A program made the translations under genes and the position numbers. Below are positions 1 through 15,549 of a DNA stretch of 15,549 bases, piece after piece (the stretch's first letter is position 1; the number at the start of each line of letters is the position of its first letter). The notes under the pieces are model-generated. The model did not search any database, had not been told where the DNA came from, and saw only the letters and a list, made by a program, of their open reading frames with translations. The stretch covers positions 1-15,549 of the forward strand of contig JBDHII010000077.1 in assembly GCA_039587515.1 (NCBI GenBank), in the 5' to 3' direction. The DNA is from Gemmatimonadota bacterium (GTDB lineage Bacteria > Gemmatimonadota > Gemmatimonadetes > Longimicrobiales > Gaopeijiaceae).

Positions 1-382
1 CCGGCTTCTCGGCCCGGATCTTCAGGTGGAAGTCGTCGGCGACCAGATCGAGCGCCAGCGACTCCACGGAGAAGAGTGCGTACGCCAGCTGGGTCTCGTC
101 GCACTCGCCACGATTCCTGCGCTTGTCGAAGCTCAGCGTGTGCATGGCGTAGCGGAGGAGGGCGATCCGGTAGACGATCCAGTCGTCGCTCTCCTTGAGG
201 GAGAAGCAGCGTTGTCGGATGAGGCGAACGGCCGAGAGGATCTTTCGGAAGCGGAGATCCCACTTCGCGAACTTCAGCGTATCGGGGAGCTCGTCGGCTT
301 CGGACGGAATCCGCTGTGTGAGCAGGTACTCCTCGAAGACCCTGAGACGCGGCAGGTCGTCTGGGTCGAACGCCTTGCTCAT
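1..382 (-). CDS. Hypothetical protein, partial. Its N-terminus is at 382 and it runs off the left edge of the window.
   Basis: Hand translation of the reverse strand from an ATG at 382..380: MSKAFDPDDLPRLRVFEEYLLHQRIPSEADELPDTLKFAKWDLRFRKILSAVRLIRQRCFSLKESDD..., open to position 1. GC3-rich codon usage matches its neighbours. It starts 8 nt after the stop of the upstream APH-like gene. It is absent from the ORF track because no stop lies inside the window. I did not recognise a family. Confidence 0.45.
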   Translation of the reverse strand, partial: MSKAFDPDDLPRLRVFEEYLLTQRIPSEADELPDTLKFAKWDLRFRKILSAVRLIRQRCFSLKESDDWIVYRIALLRYAMHTLSFDKRRNRGECDETQLAYALFSVESLALDLVADDFHLKIRAEKP

Positions 383-390
383 GACGAACT

Positions 391-1830
391 TCACGTCGTT
401 CCGAGCTTGGCGAAGTCCAGTTCGAGAGGATGAACGCCGCTGTGGGTCCAGTCGATGAACCAGACGTTGTCGCCCTCGTCACAGATGACGTTCGCGAGGT
501 TCAGGTCGCCGTGTTGGAGGCAGGTCTCCGACTGGACCGAGTCGGGATTGCGCGTGACGAGCCGTACGAGACTCTCGAGCTGATCGAGATCCACGGGCTC
601 GACGGGCCCGCCCAGCTCCTCCACGTATCCCAGAATGAGCTCCCCGTTTTCGCGGAGCCATCGGACCTGCTGCTCGGACTGCAGCCCGAGGCCGCGGAAG
701 GGGGCGACGGGAGCCCGGTCCAGGGTGTTCCCGTAGAGCTTTCCGCAGAGCAGGTCGAGCGACTTCTCCAACCGGCTCAGAAAATGTTGGACGGAGGCCT
801 CTCCCGCGGCCGTCTCGAAGTGGTCCTGCAGCGTCGTGGGACGACCCTCCATGGCCGCCAGCTCCATGCCGACCCCGAGCAGCTCTCCCTCCGTGACGGG
901 ATAGCCGAACGTCGGCACGTGCTTGCCGAAGAAGTCCTTCACCTGATGGTACCCGTCCAACTCCCTGCGCATCTGGGAGAACGCGTCGATCTTGATCACC
1001 ATCGGCTCGGTCCGCGCGTCTCCCATCCAACCGTCGGCCAGGAAGAGAAGGCTGCCGCTGAAGCCGCCGGCCAGGGCCCGAAGGTGCGTGCGGGTCCAGT
1101 GCATGCAGATCATCTGCACGATCCGCTGCGCCTCGTCCGGCAGCTGTGCCTGCGCTTCCGGAGGCCCGATCTCGCAGGGCCGGGCAGCCTCGAGACCGGC
1201 CGCCGCCGGATCGACGTCCACCCAGCGGGCGGCTTCCTCGAGATCCAGGAGGACGCGCACCCCGGAGCGGGGAAGCGTGTGCCGGAGCGCGGCGAAATGC
1301 GCTTCCGATGTGGCGCTACCCACGAGATGGGGGCAGATCGCGACCCTCTCGAAACCCAGAACGCTCCTCAGGAAGGTCGCGACCGCCTGGACGCGCTTCT
1401 CGGTGTGGCAGCCGACGACGAGAAACGTCAGGTCCGCCTCACCCTTTTCGATGCTCCGGACCTCGGCTCCACTGACCTCCGACACGACCCGGAGGAAATC
1501 GCGCCAAGGAATCAGCCCGGGTGAGCAAGAGATGCTCGGCACGCCCTCGGCGAGCTCCTCGAGGGGTTCGACCCACTCGCTGAGCGTGCCGGCCGATTCG
1601 GAGTGCGCACCGGCGGACTCCGCCTCCTCTCGCAGGAGGATCAACCGTGTGCTCGCACCCGACTCGGCAGACGCCCGGATCAGGCGAGGGAGGGGCCCGT
1701 CCCCGTACGCCCGACCTCGACCCATGAGGCGGGCGATCTCCCGTGCGCCCAGATTCGACGGGAGCCCGTTGAACTGCTTCTCCGGGCTCAGCGTGGAACG
1801 GACCAGGCTGTCGGCGACGACGATGTTCAT
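391..1830 (-). CDS. Two-domain protein: an unidentified ~220-aa N-terminal domain plus a C-terminal APH/ChoK-fold phosphotransferase (aminoglycoside phosphotransferase / homoserine-kinase-II-like).
   Basis: ATG start at 1830. The C-terminal motifs are GGFSGSLLFLADG...VIKI (nucleotide-binding region), the Brenner motif HGDLNLANV (HGDxxxxN) and FIDWTHSG (the metal-binding D), which are diagnostic of the APH/ChoK kinase fold. The N-terminal half (MNIVVADSLV...LTFLVVGCHTEKRVQAVATFL...) did not match a family by eye. The stop at 391 is 8 nt before the next minus-strand ATG. Confidence 0.7.
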   Translation of the reverse strand: MNIVVADSLVRSTLSPEKQFNGLPSNLGAREIARLMGRGRAYGDGPLPRLIRASAESGASTRLILLREEAESAGAHSESAGTLSEWVEPLEELAEGVPSISCSPGLIPWRDFLRVVSEVSGAEVRSIEKGEADLTFLVVGCHTEKRVQAVATFLRSVLGFERVAICPHLVGSATSEAHFAALRHTLPRSGVRVLLDLEEAARWVDVDPAAAGLEAARPCEIGPPEAQAQLPDEAQRIVQMICMHWTRTHLRALAGGFSGSLLFLADGWMGDARTEPMVIKIDAFSQMRRELDGYHQVKDFFGKHVPTFGYPVTEGELLGVGMELAAMEGRPTTLQDHFETAAGEASVQHFLSRLEKSLDLLCGKLYGNTLDRAPVAPFRGLGLQSEQQVRWLRENGELILGYVEELGGPVEPVDLDQLESLVRLVTRNPDSVQSETCLQHGDLNLANVICDEGDNVWFIDWTHSGVHPLELDFAKLGTT

Positions 1831-1840
1831 GCGTTATGAC

Positions 1841-3151
1841 CTAGAGGATGCAGCCGTCCGACACCAGGTCGGCCAGCTTTTCGGACTTGTCAGACGAGAT
1901 ACGGCGGAGGACCTCTTTGAACTCCGGGTAATCCGCGCGCAGCCGATTGAAGGCCGTGCTCGGCAGGAAGAAGATGTCACAGTGACTCAAAGCGTACACC
2001 GAGCCGGTCCGGCGCTCCCCCAGCAACAGTGACAGGTCGCCGAAGTAGTCTCCTGCCTCGAATTCCCCGAAAGACTTTGTGTCGCCCTCACCCCTGATCG
2101 CAAGCCGGCCGCTACCGACGAAGTAGAGTCCGGTGGCCACCTCCCCCTCCCGCACGACGTAACTGCCGGGGACGAACACCTGGGGCTCGAGGTGCATGAG
2201 GAGCGCGTTGCGAAGCGGCTCATCGGCATGGGTGAAGAGGGGAACACGCTCCGTCAGGTCCCGGGTGAGATGGTAGAGGACGTCGAGGCGGATCGGGTCG
2301 GGCAGGTCCTCGAGAAACCGCTGGGTGCTCACCCCCCGGTGCCGATCCCAGAGGTACTCGTAGTAGGCCTGGACCTGGGCCTGCAGCTCGAGGGGAACGC
2401 CTCTGTTCTGCAGGTAGCGGTTCACGCCCTCGACGCGGTCCCAGAAGGTGGACTTCGCCGCGTCGATCGCGCGGACGAGCGAGGCGATGCTTCCGATGAT
2501 CAGCGCGTACATCGAGGCACCGACGATCATGACGACCAGCGTGAAGAGATACTCGGCGTTGCGCGATGGAGTGATGTCTCCGAATCCCACGGTCGTGGTC
2601 GTCACGAACCCCCAATAGAGCGAGCGAAGGTACTGGCTGCCGACGTCCAGCGACTCGATGCCCGCGAGAACCACCCAGGAGTCCGCCGGGAATCCCTCCA
2701 CGACCGCGACGAGAAACCACCCGCAGGCGATCCAGTGGATCAGGACGAAGACGCCCACGACGAGCTTCGTGATTCTCAGATAGCCGGTGTTCGTGGAGCG
2801 CAGTCGCTCCCAGCCCCGAAAGGCTCGGAAGAGTCGGCCGATGCGAAGGAGGCGATTGGTCCTGAGCAGGAGCGCGAGCGGGATCCCGCCCAACGTGGCC
2901 GCGGAGCCGAGGAAGAGGAGATCGATCGGAACGGTGCCCGCAACGTCTGTCCAGAAGCCCGAGCGGCGGTATCGCCGAGCGATGGCTTTACGGTCGTGGA
3001 CCTCGGCTCCCCCGGCTCGGAACGGCGTGCGAAAGCCGAGCCGAATGTCGATCAGAAAGGCGAGGTCCAGCAGGTAGACGATCAGGCTCCCGACGAGGCC
3101 GACCTGCCGAAAGAAGGCGATCTGGGCGGGCACCACGACGACCGTGGCCAA
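1841..3151 (-). CDS. Cyclic-nucleotide-gated K+ channel (6TM, CNG/HCN-like; SthK/LliK/MloK1 type).
   Basis: There is an S4-like arginine ladder (LLLRTNRLLRIGRLFRAFRGWERLR) and a K+ selectivity filter (TTTVGFGD). A C-linker follows with eukaryote-like CNG/HCN spacing (YYEYLWDRHRGVSTQRFLEDLPDPIRLDVLYHLTRDL...VPLF...QVFVPGSYVVREGEVATGLYFVGSGRLAI). The CNBD phosphate-binding cassette is present (FGEFEAGDYFGDLSLLLGERRTGSVYA). The start is TTG at 3151 with no SD. The frame stays open upstream but contains no other start codon. Confidence 0.85.
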   Translation of the reverse strand: MATVVVVPAQIAFFRQVGLVGSLIVYLLDLAFLIDIRLGFRTPFRAGGAEVHDRKAIARRYRRSGFWTDVAGTVPIDLLFLGSAATLGGIPLALLLRTNRLLRIGRLFRAFRGWERLRSTNTGYLRITKLVVGVFVLIHWIACGWFLVAVVEGFPADSWVVLAGIESLDVGSQYLRSLYWGFVTTTTVGFGDITPSRNAEYLFTLVVMIVGASMYALIIGSIASLVRAIDAAKSTFWDRVEGVNRYLQNRGVPLELQAQVQAYYEYLWDRHRGVSTQRFLEDLPDPIRLDVLYHLTRDLTERVPLFTHADEPLRNALLMHLEPQVFVPGSYVVREGEVATGLYFVGSGRLAIRGEGDTKSFGEFEAGDYFGDLSLLLGERRTGSVYALSHCDIFFLPSTAFNRLRADYPEFKEVLRRISSDKSEKLADLVSDGCIL

Positions 3152-3252
3152 GACCGCACCGGCGATGAAGAGGTCCCACCCGGCGCGAGATCTCGACCCC
3201 TCGAGGATCGGGGGGTTGGGACGAATCGGTGCCTCTGGGGCGACCTGCCCGC

Positions 3253-3585
3253 TCAGAAGCCCTCCAGCGCCTCGGCCTCGGAGGGGAAGACGGCGAAGAT
3301 CGTGCTGAACCCGGAGATCTCGAAGACTTCGGCCACCGTCTCGTTGAGGCCGCAGAGTCTCAGGTTTCCGCCGGTTCCCCGGAGCTTCTTGGCCGTGGCC
3401 AGCAGCACGCGGAGACCGGCGCTCGAGATGTAGTCGAGGTCGGTGAAGTCCACCAACACCTTCGCGACCCCCTGTGCGGCGAGGTCGTCGAGGCGCTCCT
3501 GTGCCTCGGGCGCGGTGTTGGTATCCAGGTTCCCCTCGACTTGCACGACGGTGACGCCGTCGGCCTCACGAAGTGAGATGTTCAC
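3253..3585 (-). CDS. Anti-sigma-factor antagonist (single STAS domain, RsbV/SpoIIAA-like).
   Basis: 110 aa. The motif ...LVDFTDLDYISSAGLRVLL... carries the phosphorylatable Ser context seen in SpoIIAA/RsbV. The GTG start at 3585 is preceded by a GAGGAGGA SD. GTGA overlaps the stop of the upstream PP2C-kinase gene. Confidence 0.85.
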   Translation of the reverse strand: MNISLREADGVTVVQVEGNLDTNTAPEAQERLDDLAAQGVAKVLVDFTDLDYISSAGLRVLLATAKKLRGTGGNLRLCGLNETVAEVFEISGFSTIFAVFPSEAEALEGF

Positions 3586-5279
3586 GCATCCTCCTCATCG
3601 GTTTCGATGCCAGAAAGGTATTTCACCAGGACCACCACGTTCCGGTCCGTACGTCGGGTGTAGGACACCTCGTCCATCAAGCTCTCGACGAGGTGGATGC
3701 CGAGACCGCCGATGTCGCGCTCGTCGATCTCCAGAGCGGTGTCCGGGCTCGCCCGCCCGAAGGGGTTGAACGGCTGCCCGTCGTCGGTCAGACGAACGGC
3801 GAGCCGATCCGACGAGAGCTCGATGTGGACGTCGATCACGTGCTCTTCGTCGTCGGTGTACGCATAGGAAATGACGTTGTTGAGCAAGTCGTCGAAGACG
3901 AGCTTCAAGCTTCGGCGGACCTTCTCCGGGAGGCCGTGCTCGGCCGAGAACGCTTCGAAGGCCTCGTTGACCCGGTCGATCTCCTCCAGACGGTTCGCGG
4001 CCTCGACGTGAAGCACGTGAATGTCCGCCGCCCCCCCGGCCCGCCCGACGAAGCGGACAGCGAGAACCGTCACGTCGTCCGCCTGCTCGGCCTCGGCCTG
4101 GAAGCGCCAGACGTCCTCGGTGGACGCCGCCACCATGTCCTCCACGGTCTCGAACGGCTTCGAGTCCAGGATCTCGACCAGACGGTCCTCTTCGTAGAGC
4201 GTGCCGTCCGGATCCATCGCCTCGGTCACGCCGTCCGTGTACAGGAAGACGAAGTCGCCCGACTCCAACTGGCCCTTGGACTCTCCGTAGACCAGCCCGT
4301 CGACCGCGCCGATCACCGGCCCGTGCCGCTTGTCGAGCCGGATGCTCTGACCGTCCGACCGCTTCAGGTACGGCGGGTTGTGGCCCGCGTTGGTGTAGAG
4401 GAACTCGCCGGTGCTCACATCCAGGATTCCGAGCCATAGCGTGACGAACATCGCCGAGTCGTTGTTCTGGGAGATCTCGTCGTTGACATGGGTCAGAATG
4501 CTCGCCGGGGAAAAGTCGTTCGTCGCCCGGGATTTGATCAGCGTCTTGGTGACGGCCATGAAGAGCGCGGCCGGGACGCCCTTCCCCGAAACGTCGCCCA
4601 CGCAAAAGCAGAATCGGTCTTCGTCGATCAGGAAGAAGTCGTAGAAGTCCCCGCCCACCTCCCTCGCCGGCTCCAGCGTGGCGAACACGGTGAAGTCGTT
4701 GCGGTGCGGGAACGGAGGGAACTCGAGTGGGAGCATGCTCATCTGAATGTCCCGCCCGATGTTCAGCTCGCTCTCCATGCGCTCCTTGGCCGTCGTCGTT
4801 CGACGCAGGTTGTCGAAAGACTCCTGCAGCTCGCGGTTCTTGACCGTGAGCTCGCCCATCAGCGCGTCGCGACTCTTCTCTTCCACCATCGCGCGCAAGG
4901 CCGCGAGCCGACGCTCCGACAGCGCCGCCTGATTCAGGCTGGCGAGATGCAAGCCGAGCCTGAGAGCGGGCTCTCCGTCCACGCGCACACGGTGCACGTT
5001 GTCGAAGAAGGCTGCCGCGAACTCCCCGTCGACCTCACGGTCGACGCCCACGAAATCGAGGACGAGTTCCGGCATCACCGCGTCCGGGAGGACCCGCACG
5101 TCGATGCGTCCCGCGTCCGACATGCGCTCCACGACTCTGTAGAGCTGTGAGGTCACCGAGGCGATTCGGCTCGCCAGCATTCGGTCCCCTGTCAGCTCCT
5201 CCAACACACGCTGGACCTTCCGGCGTGCGTCGGAAACGGAGCCGATCCCGCCCCCCGTGATCGTTCCGACGTCGATCAT
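3582..5279 (-). CDS. Three-part signalling protein: an unknown N-terminal domain (~150 aa), a PP2C phosphatase (SpoIIE/RsbU type) and a C-terminal RsbW/SpoIIAB-like GHKL serine kinase (anti-sigma-factor type).
   Basis: ATG at 5279. A coiled-coil lead-in (ELNIGRDIQMSMLP) precedes the PP2C metal-site motifs GGDFYDF, GDVSGKGVPAALFMA, YTDGVTEA and DDVTVLAV. The C-terminal HATPase_c motifs are NNVISYAY (N box), DDGQPFNP (D/G box) and GGLGIHLV (G box). ATGA overlaps the upstream gene and GTGA overlaps the downstream STAS gene. Confidence 0.85.
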   Translation of the reverse strand: MIDVGTITGGGIGSVSDARRKVQRVLEELTGDRMLASRIASVTSQLYRVVERMSDAGRIDVRVLPDAVMPELVLDFVGVDREVDGEFAAAFFDNVHRVRVDGEPALRLGLHLASLNQAALSERRLAALRAMVEEKSRDALMGELTVKNRELQESFDNLRRTTTAKERMESELNIGRDIQMSMLPLEFPPFPHRNDFTVFATLEPAREVGGDFYDFFLIDEDRFCFCVGDVSGKGVPAALFMAVTKTLIKSRATNDFSPASILTHVNDEISQNNDSAMFVTLWLGILDVSTGEFLYTNAGHNPPYLKRSDGQSIRLDKRHGPVIGAVDGLVYGESKGQLESGDFVFLYTDGVTEAMDPDGTLYEEDRLVEILDSKPFETVEDMVAASTEDVWRFQAEAEQADDVTVLAVRFVGRAGGAADIHVLHVEAANRLEEIDRVNEAFEAFSAEHGLPEKVRRSLKLVFDDLLNNVISYAYTDDEEHVIDVHIELSSDRLAVRLTDDGQPFNPFGRASPDTALEIDERDIGGLGIHLVESLMDEVSYTRRTDRNVVVLVKYLSGIETDEEDA

Positions 5280-6376
5280 CGCGTCTTGAAACGACAGACG
5301 ACCACGGTCGCGTCGTCGTGTCTCTTTCCGTATCGGCCCACGATCTTCTCGGCTACGGTTTCGGCCGACTGGTAGCGCAGCTGAGGGTAGTCGTCGAACG
5401 TCGTGCGGTCCGAGATGCCGTCCGTGTGAATGATCAGCACGTCTCCCTCGGTGAGCCGGGCTGAATCGACACGGACATTCTTGACCTGAGAGCCCACGGT
5501 GCCTGCCGTGGCCGTGAGCCGCAGGGCTCGCTCTCCCTCGAGTCGAAGGACCGTGTTCCCGACCGCGGCATAGCGTGTCGTTCCCGAAGACAGCTCGATC
5601 CAGCAGAGAGAGACGGCGGCGCCTACGGTCTCCCGAAGTCGCTCGTTCAGCTTCTTCATCAGGTGACCGAGATCCGAGGTGGGCTCGCGCCGCACGTACC
5701 GTGTCGCGGCCTTTGCCGCCCCGTTGGCCTCCCTTCCGTGGCCCAGGCCGTCGACCACCACGATGAGCACGCCGTCTTCCACTTCGGTGACCGCGACGCC
5801 GTCTCCGCTCACGAGCTCTCCGCGACAGGGCCGGTTCACGTACGCCACCTCGAGCGGCCGGCTCTCTGCATCACCGGCCGGAAAGAGCAGGTTGCCTCGA
5901 TCCGTTCCGCGTTCCGAGAAGGCCTCGCTCCCGGTGACGGCGGCGGGCAGCGAGACCCGCCTCGGAGGAGAGACGGATTCGAGCCACTTCTGCACGACCA
6001 CCGTCGTCCCCTCACCGGTCTTGGATTCGATCGAGAAGTCGTCGACCATCCGCCTGACCCCCGGCAACCCGAGGCCGAGCGTCCCGCTCGAGCTGAAGTG
6101 ATCTCGCAGGGCCTCCTCGACGTTCTCGATACCCGGCCCCCGATCGGCGACCGTGATCTGCATGCCGCGACGGCTGCCCGATTGCACCTCTTCGATCGTG
6201 ACGCGACCGAACTCGGCGTACTTGAGAATGTTTGTCGCCAGCTCCGACACGACGGTTCCGATCGAGCGACTCTGCAGCTCGTTGAACTCCATCTCGCGCG
6301 CGAACTGCGTTGCCGAAACCACGGCGTGGGTCACGTCCGGATCGGTCCGGATTCTTCGCACGGTTCTACTCGGCAT
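5276..6376 (-). CDS. Fusion protein: an RsbT-like serine kinase (N-terminal) joined to an RsbX-like PP2C phosphatase (C-terminal).
   Basis: The N-terminal ~135 aa align by eye to B. subtilis RsbT: SELATNILKYA...TIEEVQSGSRRGMQITVADRGPGIEN...GLGLPGVRRMVDDFSIESKTGEGTTVVVQKWL. The C-terminal half aligns to RsbX: VSGDGVAV...VVVDGLGHGREAN...AAVGNTV...DVLIIHTDGIS...DDATVVVC. The start I chose is the ATG at 6376, which overlaps the end of the RsbS gene by 11 nt (gATGccgagTAG). The Arg-rich extension in the ORF track (start 6532) looks out-of-frame and is probably not translated. Confidence 0.8.
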   Translation of the reverse strand: MPSRTVRRIRTDPDVTHAVVSATQFAREMEFNELQSRSIGTVVSELATNILKYAEFGRVTIEEVQSGSRRGMQITVADRGPGIENVEEALRDHFSSSGTLGLGLPGVRRMVDDFSIESKTGEGTTVVVQKWLESVSPPRRVSLPAAVTGSEAFSERGTDRGNLLFPAGDAESRPLEVAYVNRPCRGELVSGDGVAVTEVEDGVLIVVVDGLGHGREANGAAKAATRYVRREPTSDLGHLMKKLNERLRETVGAAVSLCWIELSSGTTRYAAVGNTVLRLEGERALRLTATAGTVGSQVKNVRVDSARLTEGDVLIIHTDGISDRTTFDDYPQLRYQSAETVAEKIVGRYGKRHDDATVVVCRFKTR

Positions 6377-6839
6377 CGTCCTCGTCGACCGACGTCGCCT
6401 CAGTGGGCGCCCCCGCCTCGAGCTCGGTATCCGCTTCAAGGTCGGACTCCCCCTCGCCCGCGGGCTCCGTACGGCGCAGCTCCGCCATGCGTGCGAAGGC
6501 ATCGTCGAGCGTCGCGGTGGCCTCCACACCACGCGTATCCGCTCCCAGGTCGATCAGGGCCGAGACCACGCCGGGCTGGAGGCCGGATACGACGGTCACG
6601 GCGCCGAGGAGCCGTGCCATCCGCATGGTGTCGCGAAGCGCCTGAAACTCGACCGAGTCCATCACCGTCACGCCCGACAGATCCAGAATGACACCGCGAG
6701 CTCCCGAAGCGCGGACGAACTCGAGCAGCTCGTTGCGGAAGGCGCTGAGAATCCGGTCGTCCAGATCCACCTGGATCGACGCGACCACGCACTCCTGGGC
6801 CAGCTGGAGCGGGATCTTCGACGCTTCCTCCGTACTCAT
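6366..6839 (-). CDS. rsbS: RsbS-like STAS protein (stressosome core antagonist) with an acidic C-terminal tail.
   Basis: GVILDLSGVTVMDSVEFQAL...LLGAVTVVSGLQPGVVSALIDLG aligns with the B. subtilis RsbS segment VVIDLTSVDMIDSFIAKVL...GIQPAVAVTLIELG and conserves the phospho-Ser. ATG at 6839. The start lies 2 nt after the rsbR stop. Confidence 0.85.
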   Translation of the reverse strand: MSTEEASKIPLQLAQECVVASIQVDLDDRILSAFRNELLEFVRASGARGVILDLSGVTVMDSVEFQALRDTMRMARLLGAVTVVSGLQPGVVSALIDLGADTRGVEATATLDDAFARMAELRRTEPAGEGESDLEADTELEAGAPTEATSVDEDDAE

Positions 6840-6841
6840 CT

Positions 6842-7753
6842 TCAGCGCGCGCCGCTTCCCTTTCGTCCGATCGTCTGAACCGCGTCGGCCAGCGCGTCGC
6901 GCATCGTCGCCGTCGTCTTCACCTCACCCACGTCGATCCCGAGGTCGACGATCGTCTGGGCGATGGCCGGCGAGACTCCGGAGATCGTCGTCTCACAGCC
7001 CATGAGCTTGGTCGCCCGGGTGATCTTGATGAGGTGGTTCGCCACGGCCGTATCCACGACTCCAACCCCGCTGATGTCGAGAATGAAGACGCGGGCCTGC
7101 GACTCGGCGATCTTGCCGAGCGTGGCGTTCATGATGTCCCGAGACCGCTTCGAATCGATGATTCCGACGATCGGCAGGAACAGGAGGCTCTCCCAGATCT
7201 GCGTCACCGGCGTCGACATCTCCATGAGCGACCGGGACTGGGCGGTCAGCGTCTGCTCGACGAGGTGATTGTAGGTGTCGACGACGATGGCCGTGTCGAG
7301 ATGCAAGAGCTTGATGACGGCATCGAGCGTGGGAGCCCGATCAGCATCCGCGAAATCCCCCTCACGGATGACCATGCTGAACAGCTCCTGAAACATGTTC
7401 ATCCCGGCGAAGTACGTGTTCAGCGGCAGTCCGATGCGGGCATGCGCCTCTCCGACGAGCCGGCGCCGCTCGACGTATTCCGCATCGACCGTCCCCGCCA
7501 TGAAGGCCTCCCAGTAGCCCTGTTGCAGGGATTGGACGCGCTTCAGCGTCTCGGGATCCGCGAAGAACTCGTCGTAGTCGGGGAGCTTGGCGAGCCACTC
7601 GTACCACTTGTCCACAAGCTCGTCCATTCGGGCCAAGGCCTGCTCCCCGAAGATACGAATCCGCTCCAGGCCTTCATCGTCGAGGCGATACAGCTCCAGG
7701 AGCGCCCTGTGATCGACATGATGGTCGCCCGTCGTTGCGTAGTGACCGGCCAT
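6842..7753 (-). CDS. rsbR: RsbR-like stressosome sensor: an N-terminal globin-coupled sensor (protoglobin-type) domain plus a C-terminal STAS domain.
   Basis: The C-terminus VFILDISGVGVVDTAVANHLIKITRATKLMGCETTISGVSPAIAQTIVDLGIDV is near-colinear with B. subtilis RsbRA (GVPVVDTMVAHHI...GIRPEIAQTIVNLGIEL), including the Thr phospho-sites. The N-terminal domain shows globin-sensor features (YWEAF..., VGEAHARIGLPLNTYFAG with a candidate proximal His). The start is the ATG at 7753 behind an AGGAGG SD (AGGAGGCGAGCTTTCAATG). The ORF-track extension to 8011 is Arg/Trp-rich out-of-frame junk. Confidence 0.8.
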   Translation of the reverse strand: MAGHYATTGDHHVDHRALLELYRLDDEGLERIRIFGEQALARMDELVDKWYEWLAKLPDYDEFFADPETLKRVQSLQQGYWEAFMAGTVDAEYVERRRLVGEAHARIGLPLNTYFAGMNMFQELFSMVIREGDFADADRAPTLDAVIKLLHLDTAIVVDTYNHLVEQTLTAQSRSLMEMSTPVTQIWESLLFLPIVGIIDSKRSRDIMNATLGKIAESQARVFILDISGVGVVDTAVANHLIKITRATKLMGCETTISGVSPAIAQTIVDLGIDVGEVKTTATMRDALADAVQTIGRKGSGAR

Positions 7754-7805
7754 TGAAAGCTCGCCTCCTGTGATGAAAGCCCCCGCCTCTGGCGGCAGGG
7801 TATCC

Positions 7806-9704
7806 TCAATTCTCGTGTTCGACTGCGATCTCGATGGCATCGCGAAGCGTGCGCGCCGTGACGATGCCGTGAATGTCCACGTTGCTCTCCGCCATCCGTG
7901 CGGCCATCTCCGGCCGCACCCCGGATATGATCGCCCGGGCCCCCAACAAGCCGGCCGAGCGCGCGACCTTGAGAAGCCCCTGGGCGACATCGTCGTCCAG
8001 GTTGGGCACACCCGTCAGATCCAGGATCGCGAACCGCGCACCCTTCTCGTGCAGCTGACTCGTCAGCGACTGGCGAAGCTGCTCACAGCGGGCCGTGTCG
8101 AGCTCGCCCACGAGAGGGAGCACGACCACGTCGTCGTGAATCGGGATGAGCGGGGTCGAGAGCGCTTCGATCGAGCGGTTTTGCCGATCGATCAGCTCTC
8201 GAAGCGAGACGCGCATCGCCTCGAAGCTGCCAGCCAGCTCCCCGATCTCGTCACCCCGATCGACTTCGACCTGGGCTTCGAGGTCGCCGCTCGCCAGTTG
8301 ACTCGCCGTGACGGAGAGCGCTCGGATCGGGCGCGTCAGATTTCCTGCGAACCAGACTGCGAGCGCACCGAGGAGCGGAAGAAGGAGCGCGACCCACAGG
8401 AGCATGCGATTGCGCTGAGCGACGACCGGCGAGAGCGCCTCCGCGGCGTCGATCTCACTCATCAAAACCCAATCCAGGTCTGGAATGCTCAGGGGTCGGA
8501 AGCTCGAGAACACCTCGACGTCCCGGTAGTCCGGAAAGCGGGCCACGCCCGTCTCGCCGCCGAGCGCGAGCTCCGTACCGCGGGTCCGGACGGGCTGGAG
8601 GCCTACGGCGCTCCCCTGCGCCTCGATGGACCGAACCGTTGCCGGAGGCACACCCGCCTCACCGATCGCCGTGAGATACGCCTCGACGTCCTCCACCAGG
8701 AACCTCGACTCGGTCCTCAGCCGGTAGTCGGGGCCTACGAGGTAGGACTCGCCGGACTCACCGAGCCCGGTCGCCTGCCAAGCCGCCCCGCTCGTCATCA
8801 CGTCGTTGATGCGGTCCAACGGAAGCTGGAAAACCAGAACGCCCAGGAGCTCGCCGTCCTGCATCACGGGTGAGGCGATGAAAGAAGCTTGGGCACCGTA
8901 GGAAGGAGCGTACGGCTCGAAGTCTTCGAGCCGCGTGAAAGCGGCGCTTCCGGCGGCCAGCGCAGCGCGGTAGACCGAAGCGAGGTTGGATTCTCGGTAC
9001 GGACCCGCCTCGAGCGTCGTGCCGAAGTCGACCTCTTTGAAAACCGAGTAGACGATGCGGTGCGTCTGCGCATCGACCAGGAAGACGTCGTAGTAGCCGA
9101 AGCGTTCCAGGAAGCTCCGGAGCAGCGGGTGATAGCGCCCATGCACCGCGTCGTACCGCGTGCCCGCTTCGGCACGGTCCAGCAGGTGCTTGGAGCCCAC
9201 AGCGAAGGGGTTCGAGCTCACGTAGAGGTATTGGAGTAGACGCCCCAGTCCGTCCGATGGCCAATATTCCGAGAGCGGGCCGGCATCGTCCGAATTGGCC
9301 GAGAGCCTCGGAAGAAACTCGTCCTGGTAGTAGAGCCTCAGGCCGAGGTCGAGGTCACTCGCCGACGGCCCGGAGGCCAGAAGCTCGTTCTCCAGCGTTC
9401 GCGCCGCGGCAGTAAACTCGCGGAGCGCCTCCACGACCATGAGGTTCTCGGACTGGGTGACCACCTGGTCGCGGATCGTCTCGAAGTAGCCCTCGATCTG
9501 CCGGCCCTTGAGCTCCCGGACCGACGTCAGTAGATCGAGGGCCTGCTGCTCGGAGGTGGAGACGCCGAGGCGGTAGGCCACGGCAGCCATCGTCCCGACC
9601 GAGATGATCGTTACGATCGCCAGCACCGAGAGGACGCGCAGGCGGATCGAGAGATCCCTCAGACCCTGGCTCGATGCGCCGGCTCGCTCAGACTCTGGTG
9701 ACAC
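7806..9704 (-). CDS. Membrane-anchored sensor: TM1, a ~380-aa periplasmic Cache-like (double PAS-like) domain, TM2, a HAMP domain and a C-terminal RsbR/RsbS-type STAS domain.
   Basis: The hydrophobic segments are VLSVLAIVTIISVGTMAAVAY and MLLWVALLLPLLGALAVWFAG. HAMP is indicated by LTRPIRALSVTASQLASGDLEAQVEVDRGDEIGELAGSFEAMRVSL. The STAS motif is FAILDLTGVPNLDDDVAQGL...AIISGVRPEMAARMAES, which is stressosome-type but has Asp in place of the phosphorylatable Ser/Thr. The GTG start at 9704 overlaps the upstream small ORF by 17 nt. Confidence 0.75.
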   Translation of the reverse strand: MSPESERAGASSQGLRDLSIRLRVLSVLAIVTIISVGTMAAVAYRLGVSTSEQQALDLLTSVRELKGRQIEGYFETIRDQVVTQSENLMVVEALREFTAAARTLENELLASGPSASDLDLGLRLYYQDEFLPRLSANSDDAGPLSEYWPSDGLGRLLQYLYVSSNPFAVGSKHLLDRAEAGTRYDAVHGRYHPLLRSFLERFGYYDVFLVDAQTHRIVYSVFKEVDFGTTLEAGPYRESNLASVYRAALAAGSAAFTRLEDFEPYAPSYGAQASFIASPVMQDGELLGVLVFQLPLDRINDVMTSGAAWQATGLGESGESYLVGPDYRLRTESRFLVEDVEAYLTAIGEAGVPPATVRSIEAQGSAVGLQPVRTRGTELALGGETGVARFPDYRDVEVFSSFRPLSIPDLDWVLMSEIDAAEALSPVVAQRNRMLLWVALLLPLLGALAVWFAGNLTRPIRALSVTASQLASGDLEAQVEVDRGDEIGELAGSFEAMRVSLRELIDRQNRSIEALSTPLIPIHDDVVVLPLVGELDTARCEQLRQSLTSQLHEKGARFAILDLTGVPNLDDDVAQGLLKVARSAGLLGARAIISGVRPEMAARMAESNVDIHGIVTARTLRDAIEIAVEHEN

Positions 9705-10083
9705 GCACGCTTCCGGTTGGAAGGGTCACGTACCAGACCGACTCCGTGATGACGGATTCGACCGGATAGACGAGCCCTCCCTGGTCGAGCGCGTCCCCGA
9801 GCCGCATCGCTACGGAGATCCGGCCCTCCTCCACCCACTGGTTGTCCGCCTGGACCGTGAAAGCCAGTCCGGGACCGATCTGGGCCGCGAGAGAGGTGTG
9901 ACCCCCTTCATAGACATCCACCACCGCCTCGGACGGATCCGGATTGGCGCTGAGGACCCATGCGCCGGACGTCTCCTCGTGCGTCAGGAACTCCTCACGC
10001 GTCTCCCGATAGAGGACCGAGTCGGGACCGAGTCCGCCGAGCTCCAATGTCTCTCGCAACGCCTTCGCGGTCGCATCGTCCAT
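9688..10083 (-). CDS. Hypothetical protein (131 aa).
   Basis: ATG at 10083 with a GGAGGAGAAGTG-ATG SD. MDDATAKALRETLELGG...VRVTRV. GC3-rich. Its stop overlaps the GTG start of the Cache-HAMP-STAS gene (GTGTCACCAGAGTCTGA). I found no recognisable motif. Confidence 0.45.
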   Translation of the reverse strand: MDDATAKALRETLELGGLGPDSVLYRETREEFLTHEETSGAWVLSANPDPSEAVVDVYEGGHTSLAAQIGPGLAFTVQADNQWVEEGRISVAMRLGDALDQGGLVYPVESVITESVWYVTLPTGSVRVTRV

Positions 10084-10158
10084 CACTTCTCCTCCCACGC
10101 GAGTTTACCGGAGTCTGAGTCTGACCCCAGGGCGAAGTCTCCGCAATCACCCGATCGC

Positions 10159-11178
10159 TCAGAGCTCCTTGGGGATCTCGGCGGTCGACGTGGACTCGCC
10201 TCCGCGCGCCATGCGCTCGAAGTCGACGCCGGTAGCCGTCTTCATCTGCTCGATCATCGAAACGGCACTCCCCGTGAGGTTGCGAACGTAGTTCGGCAGC
10301 CCCTCGCCGCCCTGCTCCCCCCCTCCGTCGAGGATCGTGAGCTTGTCCACGCGCAGGTTGTCCGCTACCACGCGCGTGACCTTCTCGATCAGGTCCGGGA
10401 ACATGTGGATGAGGAAGAGCTCGTGGGTCTTGCCCTCGTCCCATTCCGCCCTCATCAGCTGGACGGCGTCGGCCGTGGCCTTCCCCTGCTCCCGGATGCG
10501 GGCCGCTTCTCCTTCAGCCCGAAGCCGCTCCGCCTCCGCCATGGCCGTCGCGGGGATCACCGTGTCGGCCTCATGCCTCCGCTTGCTCAACTCGGCCCGG
10601 ATGGACTCGAGCTCGACCTCGCGCTCGACGCGGGCGATCTGCCCGGCGACCTGGGCGCGCTCGCGTGCCTCGTTCTCGGACGCTTTGAGGTTGGCCCGCT
10701 CGACCTCCAGCGCGTTTTCCTTCTGGATGACCAGCTGCTCGGCGGCGATCTCCGCCTCCCGCCCGACGCGACGCTGCTCGGCCGACACCTCCCTCGCCTG
10801 AGCTTCCGCCTCCGCCTCCGCGATCTGAGCGTCGCGGTGCACCTCGGCATTACGCTTGCGTCCGATGGCCTGCAGGTAGCCCGCCTCGTCCGAGAGGTCG
10901 TGGATCTGGAAGAAGTCCAGCACGATGCCGAGGCCGGCGAGCTCCTCACGCGCACGCTCCGCCACTTCCTGGGCCAGCTCGAGCCGGCGCTCATTGGCCT
11001 CTTCCGGTCGGACGCCCGCGATCACGCCGCGCAACGCACCCTCCAGCACCTGCTGCGCCGTCTTGTCGATGGCCTCTACGCCCTTGCCGAGGAACCGCTC
11101 GATGCCCGCCTCGAGCCCCTGCTCCTCCCGACCGGCGAGCTTCACGTTCGCACGGCCCTCGATGTCGACCGGGATCAT
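10159..11178 (-). CDS. Flotillin-family protein, C-terminal portion (the end of the SPFH domain plus Ala/Glu-rich coiled-coil repeats).
   Basis: IERFLGK...EGALRGVIAGVRPEEANERR..LAQEVAERAREELAGLGIVLDFFQIHDLSDEAGYLQAIGRKRNAEVHRDAQIAEAEAEAQA... matches the flotillin (FloT/YqiK) SPFH end and EA-repeat region. It begins at an ATG that overlaps (ATGA) the stop of the 66-aa N-terminal fragment. It is probably one gene interrupted by a frameshift (see findings). Confidence 0.75.
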   Translation of the reverse strand: MIPVDIEGRANVKLAGREEQGLEAGIERFLGKGVEAIDKTAQQVLEGALRGVIAGVRPEEANERRLELAQEVAERAREELAGLGIVLDFFQIHDLSDEAGYLQAIGRKRNAEVHRDAQIAEAEAEAQAREVSAEQRRVGREAEIAAEQLVIQKENALEVERANLKASENEARERAQVAGQIARVEREVELESIRAELSKRRHEADTVIPATAMAEAERLRAEGEAARIREQGKATADAVQLMRAEWDEGKTHELFLIHMFPDLIEKVTRVVADNLRVDKLTILDGGGEQGGEGLPNYVRNLTGSAVSMIEQMKTATGVDFERMARGGESTSTAEIPKEL

Positions 11179-11375
11179 CCCCAGAAGCCCCGACCACCCC
11201 GGATCAGCCGATAGCCGACGGTCGTGCCGTCCTTGGCCTGACGCTTCCGGCCCGAAATGATCACGACCTCGTTGGGCTGGCAGATCACGATGTTGGCCTT
11301 GATGAAGATCACCAGGGCCAGAACGGCCAGCGCCCCCACACCAAGGTAGATCCCGATAAGCTGTGCTTGATCCAT
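11175..11375 (-). CDS. Flotillin N-terminal fragment (a TM anchor plus the start of the SPFH domain), 66 aa.
   Basis: ATG at 11375 with a GAAGGAA SD, 19 nt after the glnA stop. LIGIYLGVGALAVLALVIFI (TM) is followed by IVICQPNEVVIISGRK...GYRLIRGGRGFWG, the canonical flotillin N-terminus. It ends at a TGA embedded in ATGA. Confidence 0.6.
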   Translation of the reverse strand: MDQAQLIGIYLGVGALAVLALVIFIKANIVICQPNEVVIISGRKRQAKDGTTVGYRLIRGGRGFWG

Positions 11376-11394
11376 GATGGTTCCTTCGGCCGCG

Positions 11395-12831
11395 CTACGC
11401 GTTGAAGTACAGAGCGAACTCCCCGGGGTGAGGCCGGAGGCGCACGTAGTCGATCTCGTTCTTTCGCTTGTAGTCGATCCAGGTTTCGATCAGGTCTTCA
11501 GTGAAAACGCCGTCCCGGACCAGGAAGTCGTAATCCGCTTCGAGCGCCGAGATCGCCTCGTCCAGGGTCCCCGGAGTGCGCTCGATCTCCCTTCCTCCCG
11601 AGCCCGCCGCAAGCTCGTAGATGTCTTCGTCCACGGGGTCGGCAGGCTCCAGCCCACGCCGAATCCCGTCGATTCCGGCGCACATGATCGCCGCGAAGCT
11701 GAGATAGGGGTTGCACGACGGATCTGGCGTGCGGAACTCGATCCGCTTCGACTTCGGACCCCCGGTCATCGTCGGGATGCGGATGCACGCGCTCCGGTTC
11801 CGTCCCGAATAGAGCAGGTTCATCGGGGCCTCGTAGCCCGGTACGAGCCTCCGATAGGAGTTCGTCGTCGGACAGCAGATCCCACAGAGAGCTCGGGCGT
11901 GCTCCAGTAGCCCCCCGATGAAGTGGACCGCCAGCGGGCTCAGGTCACCGTAGGTGCCCGCCTGGTAGAACACGTTCTTCCCCTCTTTCGAGAGGCTGAT
12001 GTTGTGGTGCATGCCCGAGCCGTTTTCCTGAAGGAGAGGCTTGGGCATGAAAGTGGCCGTCTTCCCGTACCGGGCCACCACGTTCTTGACCACGTACTTG
12101 TACATGATCGAGGCGTCGGCCTGGCTCAGCAGCGGACCGAACCGGAAGCCGATCTCGCACTGGCCCGCAGCACCCACCTCGTGATGGTGCAGCTCCGGCT
12201 GTAGGCCGACCCGCTTGAGCACGTGGGAGATCTTGGAGCGGAGGTTGTTGTACTGATCGATCGGTGGCGCCGAGAAGTACGCGCCACGCTGCGCGGCTCG
12301 GTGTCCCAGATTCGCGCTGTCACCCTTCTCGCCCGTCGCCCAGGACGCCGCGGAGCTGTTCAGGAAGAAGTACCCGTGCTGGGTGGCCTGATCGAAGCGG
12401 ACCTCGTCGAACACGAAAAACTCGATCTCGGGGCCCAGGTAGGCCGTGTCGGCGATCCCGAGCGAGCGCACGAGCTGCTCGGCCCGACGTGCGACCGAAC
12501 GCGGATCGCGCGAGAAGGTGTAGCGCCCGTTCGGGTCGACGATGTCACAGAAGACCGACAGTGCCGGATCGTCGAAGAAGGGATCCTCGAAGACCGAAGA
12601 CGCGTCGGGAATCAGGAGCATGTCGCTCTGGTTGATCCTCGTGAAGCCGCGGACCGAGGAGCCGTCGAAGGCCATGCCGTTGCGGAACAGGGCCTCGTCC
12701 ACCAGCTCGGCCGGCAGCGTGAGGTGCTGAAGCGTTCCGAAGAGATCCACGAACTTCAGGTCCAGGAACTGGATCTCGCGCTCGCCGATCATGCGGACGA
12801 GGTCGCGCGGGCTGGTTGGATGCCTGGTCAT
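11395..12831 (-). CDS. glnA: Glutamine synthetase, type I.
   Basis: 478 aa. The GS-I signatures are present, including GSGMHHNISL, NPY..., and the N-terminal beta-grasp and catalytic-domain layout. ATG at 12831 behind a GAGGA SD that overlaps the glnK stop. Confidence 0.95.
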   Translation of the reverse strand: MTRHPTSPRDLVRMIGEREIQFLDLKFVDLFGTLQHLTLPAELVDEALFRNGMAFDGSSVRGFTRINQSDMLLIPDASSVFEDPFFDDPALSVFCDIVDPNGRYTFSRDPRSVARRAEQLVRSLGIADTAYLGPEIEFFVFDEVRFDQATQHGYFFLNSSAASWATGEKGDSANLGHRAAQRGAYFSAPPIDQYNNLRSKISHVLKRVGLQPELHHHEVGAAGQCEIGFRFGPLLSQADASIMYKYVVKNVVARYGKTATFMPKPLLQENGSGMHHNISLSKEGKNVFYQAGTYGDLSPLAVHFIGGLLEHARALCGICCPTTNSYRRLVPGYEAPMNLLYSGRNRSACIRIPTMTGGPKSKRIEFRTPDPSCNPYLSFAAIMCAGIDGIRRGLEPADPVDEDIYELAAGSGGREIERTPGTLDEAISALEADYDFLVRDGVFTEDLIETWIDYKRKNEIDYVRLRPHPGEFALYFNA

Positions 12832-12839
12832 CGAGGTCC

Positions 12840-13175
12840 TCAGTAGAGGGCCCGGGAGCCGCGCTCGCCGGTCCAGACAGTGACCACGTCCTGAAGCTCC
12901 AGAACGAAGATCTTACCCGAGCCACCGCTGTCCATGCAGCCCCTCGAGATCGCCTCTATCGCTCGCTCGAGGTTCGCGTCGTTGACGGCGACCTCGAGGC
13001 GAATCCGCTGAAAGAGAGAGACCTCCTTCTTCACGCCCCGGTACGTCTGCTGCTCGGTCCGAGAGGCAGTGCCCATGACGGAGGTTGCCGTCATGTGACG
13101 GACTTCGGTGTCGAACAGCGCCTGCTTGACGGAAGGAAGCTGCTCAGGCTTGATCAGCGCGACGATCATCTTCAT
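12840..13175 (-). CDS. glnK: Nitrogen regulatory protein PII (GlnK/NrgB-like).
   Basis: 111 aa. MKMIVALIKP..., a T-loop ending ...TYRGVKKEV (the B. subtilis NrgB-like YRGVKIE type), and GSGKIFV (B-loop, G[DS]GKIFV). ATG with a GGAGA SD, 18 nt after the amtB stop. Confidence 0.9.
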   Translation of the reverse strand: MKMIVALIKPEQLPSVKQALFDTEVRHMTATSVMGTASRTEQQTYRGVKKEVSLFQRIRLEVAVNDANLERAIEAISRGCMDSGGSGKIFVLELQDVVTVWTGERGSRALY

Positions 13176-13193
13176 GAGAAGGTCTCCACGCCT

Positions 13194-14504
13194 CTAGTCG
13201 GTGGTGAAGATCTGGAACCCGCCGTACGACTCGATTCCGTGCTCGTCGATGTCGAGGCCGCGCAGCTCGGTCTCCTTCGAGACGCGCAGGCCCAGAACGG
13301 AGTCGATCGACTTGAACACGACCCACATGGCCAGAACCGTGAAGCCCAGGCAGGCGATGACGCCCAGCGTCTGGGTGCCCAGCGGTCCGAAGCCACCCCC
13401 CATGAAGAGCCCGTCGCTCGTCGCTCCGAAGGCCTCCCGGCCCCAGAGCCCCACGGCCAGCGTTCCCCAGATTCCGCAGATCCCGTGGACCGCCACCGCC
13501 CCGACCGGATCATCGACCCGAATCGCGTCGATCCATGCGATTCCGTATACGCAGAGGATACCGGCGATGGCCCCGATCCAGAGCGCTGCTCCAGGGCTGA
13601 CGGCGGCACAGGGCGCCGTGATGCCGACGAGTCCGGCCAGAGCCCCGTTGAGGGCGAGAAGCAGGTCCGGCTTCTCGTACTTGATCCAGCTGACCACCAT
13701 CGCCGCGACTGCCCCGATCGAGGGCGCGAGCGTCGTGTTGATCGCGACCCGCGCGACCACGTCCGGCTCTCCCATCCCCAGCGTCGAGCCGGCGTTGAAG
13801 CCGTACCACCCGAACCAGAGGATGAAGACACCGAGCGAAGCCAGCGGGAGGCTGTGCCCTCCAATGGCGTTGGGTGATCCGTCCGCGTTGAACTTTCCGA
13901 TACGCGGACCGAGAACCCACGCACCGACCAGGCCGGTCGCACCTCCGACGGCGTGTACGACCGTCGAGCCGGCGAAATCGTGAAAGCCCAGCCCGCTGAG
14001 CCAGCCGCCTCCCCACACCCAGTGACCGACGATCGGATAGATGAAGGCGGAGAGGATGAAGGAGTAGGCGAGGTACGAGGTGAACTTCATCCGCTCTGCG
14101 ACCGCACCCGCTACGATCGTGGCCGCCGCACCCGCGAATACCGCCTGGAACAGCCAGAACACTTCGACCGGCAGGCCCTCCACGGGTGACTCCACCCCCA
14201 CCAGGAACCACCCTTCAGTTCCGAAGAGCAGCCCCTCCGACCCGTACATGATGGCGTATCCGAAGACGAAGTAGGCCAGAGCGGCGAAGCAGAAGTCCAG
14301 GAGGTTCTTCATCAGAACGTTCCCGGCGTTCTTGGTCCGCACGAGGCCGGCCTCGAGCACGCTGAACCCGGCCTGCATGAAGAAGACGAGGATCGCGGCC
14401 AGCAGAATCCACAGCGTGCTCACGCTGTCGAACCCGCTCGCCTCCTGAACTGCTGGCAGGGCTGGATTCAAGTCGAAGAATCCCACACGAAAGGCAAGAG
14501 CCAT
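13194..14504 (-). CDS. amtB: Ammonium transporter (Amt family).
   Basis: 436 aa and 11-12 TM. The conserved Amt motifs include DFAGSTVVHAVGG and HG..G........; ATG at 14504. Confidence 0.95.
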   Translation of the reverse strand: MALAFRVGFFDLNPALPAVQEASGFDSVSTLWILLAAILVFFMQAGFSVLEAGLVRTKNAGNVLMKNLLDFCFAALAYFVFGYAIMYGSEGLLFGTEGWFLVGVESPVEGLPVEVFWLFQAVFAGAAATIVAGAVAERMKFTSYLAYSFILSAFIYPIVGHWVWGGGWLSGLGFHDFAGSTVVHAVGGATGLVGAWVLGPRIGKFNADGSPNAIGGHSLPLASLGVFILWFGWYGFNAGSTLGMGEPDVVARVAINTTLAPSIGAVAAMVVSWIKYEKPDLLLALNGALAGLVGITAPCAAVSPGAALWIGAIAGILCVYGIAWIDAIRVDDPVGAVAVHGICGIWGTLAVGLWGREAFGATSDGLFMGGGFGPLGTQTLGVIACLGFTVLAMWVVFKSIDSVLGLRVSKETELRGLDIDEHGIESYGGFQIFTTD

Positions 14505-14631
14505 GTCGACCGATCGGTTGTTTTCAGGTTAGTGGGGACTCCCCCCGGGGGGGGGCAGACTAGCCCACGCGGCGTGCCACATCAAGTTCAGTCGGAGACC
14601 CCGAGCACGGGGAGTGCAATCCGACCCCGTC
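14505..14631 (-). promoter_or_regulatory. Intergenic region upstream of amtB-glnK-glnA. It presumably holds the promoter and nitrogen-regulatory sites, which I did not resolve.
   Basis: This is the only long (127-nt) non-coding gap on the amtB side. I see a weak sigma70-like candidate on the minus strand (TTGATG-N17-TAGTCT) and no convincing sigma54, NtcA or GlnR box. Confidence 0.3.
14541..14555. repeat. C6G9 homopolymer palindrome (CCCCCCGGGGGGGGG) in the amtB upstream region.
   Basis: Read directly from the sequence. It is self-complementary and is flanked by GGGGACT, which can pair with the C-run. A hairpin-capable element CCCCGAGCACGGGG lies nearby at 14599-14612. Confidence 0.6.
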
Positions 14632-15459: not shown

Positions 15460-15549
15460 GAATCCTCCCTTGATGTTTGGGCGTCGAGGATCATGGTCAG
15501 GGGCGATGCCAAGATCAAGGCGAGGCACGGCACGGGCGACTGGCCGGCA

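Follow-up and report, generated by a model that had tools for sequence, protein, structure and literature searches.

A natural fusion of an RsbT-like kinase and an RsbX-like phosphatase in a globin-coupled stressosome module of a Gemmatimonadota bacterium

In the Bacillus subtilis operon (rsbRSTUVW-sigB-rsbX), the genes for the stressosome kinase RsbT and the phosphatase RsbX are separate and lie at opposite ends, and transcription of rsbX in Bacillus is under positive sigma-B control (PMC9237128). Outside the Bacillales, the usual gene order is rsbR-S-T-X, in which X comes immediately after T (PMC9237108). In Vibrio vulnificus (VV2_0073-0076; Heinz et al. 2022, PMC9237108; Jia et al. 2016, PMC4976288), T and X of this module are separate proteins, and the survey of Heinz et al. 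calls X a "single domain PP2C type phosphatase" (PMC9237108). In this study, we analyzed a stretch of 15,549 nucleotides from a Gemmatimonadota bacterium (GenBank assembly GCA_039587515.1, contig JBDHII010000077.1, positions 1 to 15,549; the window is this whole stretch), in which a single gene, here called T-X, encodes an RsbT-like kinase domain (T domain) and an RsbX-like phosphatase domain (X domain) in one chain. T-X is a natural fusion of an RsbT-type kinase (aa 1-133) with a phosphatase of the type of RsbX and of its Moorella thermoacetica homologue MtX (aa 173-366), and it belongs to a globin-coupled rsbR-S-T-X module; we consider a tethered-reset role likely.

The window matches the V. 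vulnificus module in its gene order and in the four functions encoded. A putative globin-STAS RsbR is followed by a single-STAS RsbS and, judged from the sequence, the T-X gene belongs to the globin-coupled rsbR-S-T-X stressosome module of the V. vulnificus type. The window differs in that T and X form one chain and in that the operon has an extra membrane RsbR paralogue with dCache, HAMP and STAS domains. In comparison with B. subtilis, a collinear T (41% identity), the fold and motifs of X and the substrate residues are kept. In contrast to B. subtilis, T and X of the window are co-translated 1:1 and, whereas the B. subtilis operon contains sigB, no sigma-factor gene was identified among the larger open reading frames (ORFs) of the window that were scanned. 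Among solved structures, MtX (3zt9; Quin et al. 2012) comes nearest to the X domain; however, MtX is free-standing (193 aa in the solved chain).

A kinase and a phosphatase in one chain are also found in HsbR from Pseudomonas aeruginosa, CrsR from Shewanella oneidensis, Rv1364c from Mycobacterium tuberculosis (3ke6) and mycobacterial RsbUW. HsbR and CrsR have a receiver (REC)-PP2C-kinase architecture (PMC6482189), and the mycobacterial rsbUW fusion is named in PMC8115616. In all these proteins, the PP2C domain precedes the kinase, which is of the RsbW type and also serves as an anti-sigma factor; the proteins usually begin with an input domain (REC, PAS), and they act on RsbV-type partners. 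In contrast, T-X has the kinase before the PP2C domain, its kinase is of the RsbT type and its place is at the level of the stressosome. Therefore, T-X falls outside this group of proteins. A single-chain kinase and phosphatase for one STAS substrate is an established design, whereas the T-X order at the stressosome level is undescribed in the literature searched. We found no description of an RsbT-RsbX fusion there; Pane-Farre et al. 2005, which deals with the RsbRST module and lies outside this literature, may mention one.

The gene and its parts are as follows.

5276..6376, minus strand: T-X gene, 366 aa, RsbT-like kinase and RsbX-like PP2C (single ORF; stop codon 5276-5278)
5978..6376, minus strand: T domain, aa 1-133, GHKL kinase (RsbT alignment, motifs and fold)
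5861..5977, minus strand: inter-domain linker, aa 134-172 (model confidence and variability across homologues)
5279..5860, minus strand: X domain, aa 173-366, small PP2C (MtX/RsbX by sequence and fold, motifs)

The original prediction, made from the letters of this stretch, placed a kinase and a phosphatase in one polypeptide at 5276-6376. These coordinates hold; the strand, which had been left unstated, is minus. Translation of the minus strand of 5276-6376 gave 366 codons and then a stop codon, with zero internal stops, and this uninterrupted ORF contains two Pfam domains, HATPase_c_2 (aa 16-130, E 4.4e-13) and SpoIIE (aa 201-363, E 8.9e-13). The joining of both halves in one ORF was thus confirmed. 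The ATG of T-X is at 6376-6374 and the TAG of rsbS is at 6368-6366, so that the two genes overlap at 6366-6376, exactly the 11 nt that had been predicted. The longest possible ORF would begin with a GTG at 6532. Because the homologues start at the same Met as the ATG at 6376, we preferred this start and the 366-aa form. At its other end, T-X shares nucleotides of its stop codon with the start codon of the following gene (ATGA, 5276-5279), which encodes a PP2C/RsbW-like protein and in turn overlaps an RsbV-like gene by 4 nt. This tight packing suggests a single transcription unit and possibly translational coupling. A scan of the operon for promoters and terminators gave nothing above the shuffled expectation. 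The G+C content at third codon positions (GC3) in the T-X frame is 0.73-0.90 along the whole gene, including the linker.

Because the HATPase_c_2 and SpoIIE models are generic, the T domain was compared directly with RsbT and RsbW from B. subtilis; these query sequences were confirmed by exact look-up of the entries so named. Residues 1-132 of T-X and residues 1-132 of RsbT form a gap-free alignment (41% identity, E 4e-34). RsbW is matched much more weakly (25% identity in 114 columns, E 0.002), and SpoIIAB with an E value of 1e-5. As a reciprocal control, we used the kinase domain of the neighbouring 565-aa protein: this domain matches RsbW (E 2e-12) and gave no match to RsbT in the direct comparison. 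The best fold match of the T domain in Foldseek is SpoIIAB, with a template modelling (TM) score of about 0.77. Thus, by sequence, the T domain is closer to RsbT than to RsbW or SpoIIAB over the full domain length, and it contains the GHKL ATP-binding motifs. RsbT is a free-standing single domain of about 133 aa, whereas T-X has 366 aa with a C-terminal PP2C domain. Therefore, T-X is a fusion variant of RsbT and no canonical member.

For the X domain, the best solved relative by sequence is MtX (3zt9; E 2.1e-20, 30% identity) and the second is B. subtilis RsbX (3w40; E 1.3e-9). Both rank above SpoIIE. A Foldseek search of the PDB gave the same order: 3zt9 was first (TM score 0.91 normalised to the target, root-mean-square deviation 1.9 Å) and 3w40 second (0.85, likewise normalised, 3.2 Å). 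The T-X model also matches 3ke6 (Rv1364c). The X domain therefore has a minimal PP2C/SpoIIE fold nearest to RsbX and MtX rather than to RsbU or SpoIIE, it carries the acidic PPM motifs and, in keeping with the place of rsbX right after rsbT in RSTX modules, it follows the T domain in frame. The alignment with RsbT and the first ranks of MtX and RsbX by both sequence and fold bear out the assignment of the N-terminal half to RsbT and of the C-terminal half to RsbX in the original prediction.

Conservation of the motifs was assessed in an alignment of the window protein with 38 homologues, which are 32-68% identical to it. In the GHKL kinase domain, the N-box residues E45 and N49, the G1 box D78-G80-G82 and the G2 box G101-L-G-L-P105 are invariant. 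The four PP2C acidic motifs, G191-D192, D209-x-x-G212-H213-G214, D319-G320 and D354-D355, are likewise invariant in these 39 sequences. In the alignment with RsbX and MtX, the counterparts of the X-domain motifs GD192, D209xxGHG, TD319G and D354D355 are GD, DGLG, TDG and DD. In GHKL enzymes in general, the motifs named above bind ATP, and in PPM enzymes the acidic motifs provide metal ligands. Judged from this alignment, the ATP-binding and PP2C acidic motifs of T-X are under strict purifying selection. The intactness of the GHKL motifs and of the PP2C Asp residues, which had been proposed as a check, is thereby established, and neither half of T-X looks like a pseudo-enzyme.

The AlphaFold model of T-X was built on 39 homologues and has a mean predicted local distance difference test score (pLDDT) of 88.4. 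In this model, pLDDT values below 50 are confined to the ATP lid (aa 93-100) and to aa 136-149; disorder is predicted for the latter stretch, which lies in the linker. The model places a short helix and a strand at residues 149-172, in front of the conserved PP2C core, and its confidence there is moderate to high. Across the homologues, the region corresponding to W131-R182 is 14-66 aa long (median 50) and its sequence conservation is low. The predicted TM score (pTM) of the model is 0.60 in spite of the confident domains; therefore, the T and X domains are not fixed relative to each other in the model.

We then examined the distribution of the fusion. A search of 5.8 billion proteins gave 216 matches, of which 120 were listed. 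In at least 118 of these 120, the kinase domain is accompanied by SpoIIE, and nearly all are 320-390 aa long. A protein identical to T-X of the window is present from an independent assembly source (P0001). When the genomes were scanned with the single T-X protein as the query, no relative was confirmed. A scan with the family alignment, which covered one genome per species (185,579 species), gave 438 confirmed matches; because these were found by T-domain patterns, some of them may be unfused. Among the best 80 of the 438, which were the loci examined, one reading frame spans both domains in 78. The exceptions are L012, which runs off the contig, and L034, which has a frame break in the linker. 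In the latter, from a Gemmatimonadota metagenome-assembled genome (MAG), T-X at 3248-4266 is split by a frame change at aa ~184/202; the cause is either misassembly or, in nature, a fission of the gene or its decay to a pseudogene. An Acidimicrobiia MAG (L047) possesses two modules of the RsbS/T-X type on one contig, at 391-1835 and 6912-9059, in opposite orientations.

The closest hosts of T-X are other Gemmatimonadota (62-69% identity). T-X was also found in Acidobacteriota, Myxococcales, Halieaceae, cyanobacteria, Ignavibacteria, Caldithrix, Nitrospina, Planctomycetota (Phycisphaerae), Acidimicrobiia, Caulobacteraceae and many Betaproteobacteria and Gammaproteobacteria. Isolates with T-X include Aeromonas salmonicida, A. 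sobria, A. dhakensis, Iodobacter, Roseateles and Polynucleobacter.

To place the fused T domains among their relatives, the T domain alone was searched against 1.84 billion cluster representatives, and the nearest 150 were classified. They comprise 35 T-X proteins, 107 T-only proteins, 5 T-T tandems and 3 RsbS-RsbT fusions. The T-only proteins are mostly about 130-145 aa long, and some of them are perhaps truncated fragments. The original prediction implied that the fusion is rare. This is not the case: the fusion is widespread, and about a quarter (35 of 150) of the nearest RsbT cluster representatives are fused. The T-T tandems (P0158, P0170, P0256, P0263 and P0292) and the RsbS-RsbT proteins, in which STAS and kinase domains are joined (P0179, P0201 and P0249), suggest that fusion among stressosome components takes more than one form.

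When ranked by similarity, fused T domains are mixed with unfused ones. In a neighbour-joining tree of 146 T domains (129 columns, without support values), the fused state requires 20 changes, as compared with about 32 after label shuffling. Thus, the fused state is clustered and not monophyletic, although this rough tree permits no firm conclusion. It is compatible with several fusion or fission events. The fusion arose most simply if the stop codon that separates neighbouring rsbT and rsbX genes was lost. Because rsbX lies immediately after rsbT outside the Bacillales (PMC9237108), the loss of one stop codon suffices. The fusion is therefore one small step past an arrangement that already couples T and X.

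The gene context supports the placement of T-X in the stressosome module. T-X comes directly after rsbR and rsbS in the window and in nearly all of the 80 loci: a STAS-domain RsbR is encoded upstream in nearly all and a recognisable RsbS lies between in most. By tblastn, the order globin-RsbR, RsbS and T-X was observed in a large majority of the 80. The original prediction had proposed a database survey of this domain order next to rsbS; kinase followed by SpoIIE after rsbR-rsbS does recur, with a single frame in all but the two loci described above. In Aeromonas and a few other loci, RsbR carries PAS domains in place of the globin. Therefore, the fusion is independent of the globin sensor. 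The dCache-HAMP-STAS gene is syntenic in the Gemmatimonadota loci, and synteny was also observed for the RsbV-like gene.

The gene after T-X was classified in 76 loci. HisKA kinases were found in 33, receiver domains in 30 and Hpt in 25. SpoIIE phosphatases were found in 31, and HATPase_c_2 was matched in 28, which is the signature of a PP2C and RsbW-like fusion. RsbU_N was detected in one of the 76 downstream proteins. Such downstream types (PP2C phosphatases and two-component kinases) are among those that Heinz et al. list for unfused globin rsbRSTX modules (PMC9237108). In one Thermodesulfobacteriota MAG (L077, 8007-9388), a standalone 130-aa rsbT is located immediately before T-X, and a kinase with RsbU_N, PAS, HisKA and REC domains follows. 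T-X of this locus keeps the ATP-binding and PP2C acidic motifs.

The other genes of the cluster in the window are as follows.

7806..9704, minus strand: dCache-HAMP-STAS protein, second RsbR-type co-antagonist, 632 aa, first gene of the cluster (Pfam dCache_1, HAMP, STAS)
6842..7753, minus strand: globin-coupled RsbR (protoglobin and STAS), start codon ATG at 7753, about 303 aa (Pfam Protoglobin and STAS)
6366..6839, minus strand: RsbS-like single STAS protein, 157 aa (Pfam STAS; RsbS structures)
3582..5279, minus strand: SpoIIE PP2C and RsbW-like kinase fusion, 565 aa, candidate output (Pfam SpoIIE 8.9e-54, HATPase_c_2 7.9e-25)
3253..3585, minus strand: RsbV-like anti-sigma-factor antagonist, STAS, 110 aa (Pfam STAS 1e-25; TIGR00377 6.6e-28)

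Thus, the operon on the minus strand reads dCache-HAMP-STAS, globin-RsbR, RsbS, T-X, SpoIIE and RsbW-like fusion, and RsbV-like. The globin RsbR matches RsbR (7o0i_B) of the V. vulnificus stressosome, which senses oxygen, with an E value of 4.2e-98. Its VVDT and AQT threonines are kept: in the alignment with Listeria RsbR, these motifs are paired with the two that contain the phospho-acceptor Thr. RsbS matches B. subtilis RsbS (6jhk; E 1.9e-18) as well as the Listeria, Vibrio and Moorella proteins, including 6qcm and 7o0i_a. In the alignment, ...VMDS... lies over ...MIDS..., so that Ser62 of the window protein corresponds to the serine of MIDS in the B. subtilis protein; we take this serine to be the phospho-acceptor Ser59. 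At its C-terminus, RsbS of the window has a strongly acidic tail, about 38 residues long (aa ~120-157, 6366-6480, minus strand; ...EGESDLEADTELEAGAPTEATSVDEDDAE), which is absent from the RsbS chains in the PDB (115-123 aa) and the last codons of which overlap the start of T-X.

At the positions that are threonines of VVDT and AQT in the globin RsbR and in Listeria RsbR, the dCache-HAMP-STAS paralogue carries Asp (LDDD) and Arg (AAR). Because the acceptor threonines are replaced, phosphorylation by T is improbable; this paralogue is probably not a substrate of T, and it may be a mimic of a permanently phosphorylated subunit. In the 565-aa protein, the N-terminal region of about 200 aa has no Pfam match, and RsbU_N was not found in this protein at E <= 0.01. 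With its PP2C domain followed by an RsbW-type kinase, the 565-aa protein fits the family of HsbR, CrsR and Rv1364c. Both kinase/phosphatase pairs of the pathway are therefore fused in the window, in opposite orders. Directly after the RsbV gene, a cyclic-nucleotide-gated ion channel (Ion_trans and cNMP_binding) is encoded at 1841-3151 (minus strand), and it keeps this position in several Gemmatimonadota loci (L001, L005, L007, L008, L025 and L029). A protein with an adenylate/guanylate cyclase domain is encoded at 14632-15528 (minus strand). A 479-aa ORF at 391-1830 (minus strand) has weak C-terminal matches to TCAD9 and to an APH/choline-kinase-like phosphotransferase fold and is unassigned over its remaining length.

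On the basis of these results, we propose the following scheme. The T domain would dock on the STAS core of RsbR and RsbS. The trigger would be a change of signal, either at the heme globin, through its O2 or ligand state, or by way of the dCache-HAMP RsbR paralogue. Once triggered, T would phosphorylate Ser62 of RsbS and the Thr residues of RsbR. The X domain, made 1:1 with T and held near the complex by a flexible tether of about 17 putatively disordered residues, would strip the phosphates locally, so that activation would be brief and would reset itself without a separately regulated phosphatase. As output, the T domain would act on the next-encoded protein, which is here the PP2C/RsbW-like fusion with its RsbV partner and in other lineages is a hybrid histidine kinase. 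The equal amounts of both activities that the original prediction emphasized follow trivially from the fusion, and the futile cycle or timer that it envisaged is plausible as something that such a tether could produce. Its label of a "feedback" phosphatase could not be upheld: X is co-translated with T, and nothing in the window puts X under the output of the pathway.

Several points weigh against this scheme. The kinase and phosphatase activities of T-X, its choice of substrates and its release are inferred from homology. Because RsbU_N was undetected in the downstream PP2C/RsbW protein, as in all but one of the 76 downstream proteins, the contact between T and the output is putative. If T leaves the complex to signal, the tethered X leaves too, and this complicates a local reset. 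Moreover, since a standalone rsbT stands beside T-X in the Thermodesulfobacteriota locus, the principal kinase in some lineages may be a protein other than the T domain of T-X.

The possible departure of X with a dissociating T raises a different explanation, in which T-X stays on the STAS core, the sensors toggle its net kinase or phosphatase activity and the phosphorylation state of RsbS and RsbR is itself the output. One chain for the same STAS substrates would then resemble HsbR and CrsR, in which an input domain sets the balance (PMC6482189). In 75 of the 76 downstream proteins, RsbU_N, to which free RsbT is known to dock, is absent, and in V. vulnificus Heinz et al. detected no interaction between RsbT and the downstream protein (PMC9237108). 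However, T is collinear with and 41% identical to RsbT, which works by release in Bacillus (PMC9237108), the interleaving of fused with unfused T domains speaks against a mechanism that differs in principle, and T-X has no regulatory domain inside. We therefore regard this switch without release as unlikely. The idea that T-X is such a bound, sensor-toggled bifunctional enzyme, which resets itself or generates pulses without release of free RsbT, and that the fusion has been repeatedly gained and lost as a selectable mode, is possible but doubtful. It is quite improbable that one half is a non-catalytic adaptor, with T merely docking X or X merely binding phosphorylated STAS domains. The standalone rsbT before T-X in the Thermodesulfobacteriota locus would make a second active kinase redundant there, but all the ATP-binding and PP2C acidic motifs are invariant in the diverse alignment and are kept even in T-X of that locus.

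T-X might also be a partner-switch enzyme of the RsbW/RsbU type that acts on RsbV, given that both Pfam domains are generic and that an RsbV-like gene lies 1.7 kb downstream. We give this very little credence. The E values for RsbT and RsbW (4e-34 and 0.002) and the proximity of the PP2C domain to MtX and RsbX, and not to RsbU or SpoIIE, oppose it; T-X follows rsbR-rsbS in nearly all of the 80 loci whether an RsbV gene is present or absent, and a separate fusion of the RsbU/RsbW type already adjoins RsbV in the window. An assembly or sequencing artefact, in which two separate genes were joined because a stop codon was lost or the frame was shifted, is the least credible explanation. The window is apparently metagenome-derived and the related MAG locus L034 has a frame break in the linker, but the same fusion recurs in 78 of the 80 genomes, which are independent of each other and comprise isolates of Aeromonas, Iodobacter, Roseateles and Polynucleobacter among others, and in more than 100 database proteins, one of them identical and from an independent assembly; GC3 is continuous over the junction. 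Thus, the artefact, pseudo-enzyme and RsbW/RsbU readings were rejected on account of the recurrence of the fusion, the invariant motifs and the affinity to RsbT, MtX and RsbX.

The preferred reading, a tethered RsbT-RsbX pair, makes the fusion a common variant of a known signalling module and no new kind of system. The database labels of T-X proteins are generic ("anti-sigma regulatory factor", "ATP-binding SpoIIE family protein phosphatase" and "histidine kinase"), and genes with such labels could be renamed RsbT-RsbX fusions. The reset of the stressosome and the attenuation of RsbT release under continued stress are still poorly understood (PMC9237128). The natural T-X fusion is a ready experiment on whether the proximity of the phosphatase and a fixed stoichiometry set the duration of the signal, and it also bears on whether RsbT must leave the complex at all. 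Cultured carriers of T-X, such as Aeromonas salmonicida and Iodobacter, may be genetically tractable for this purpose.

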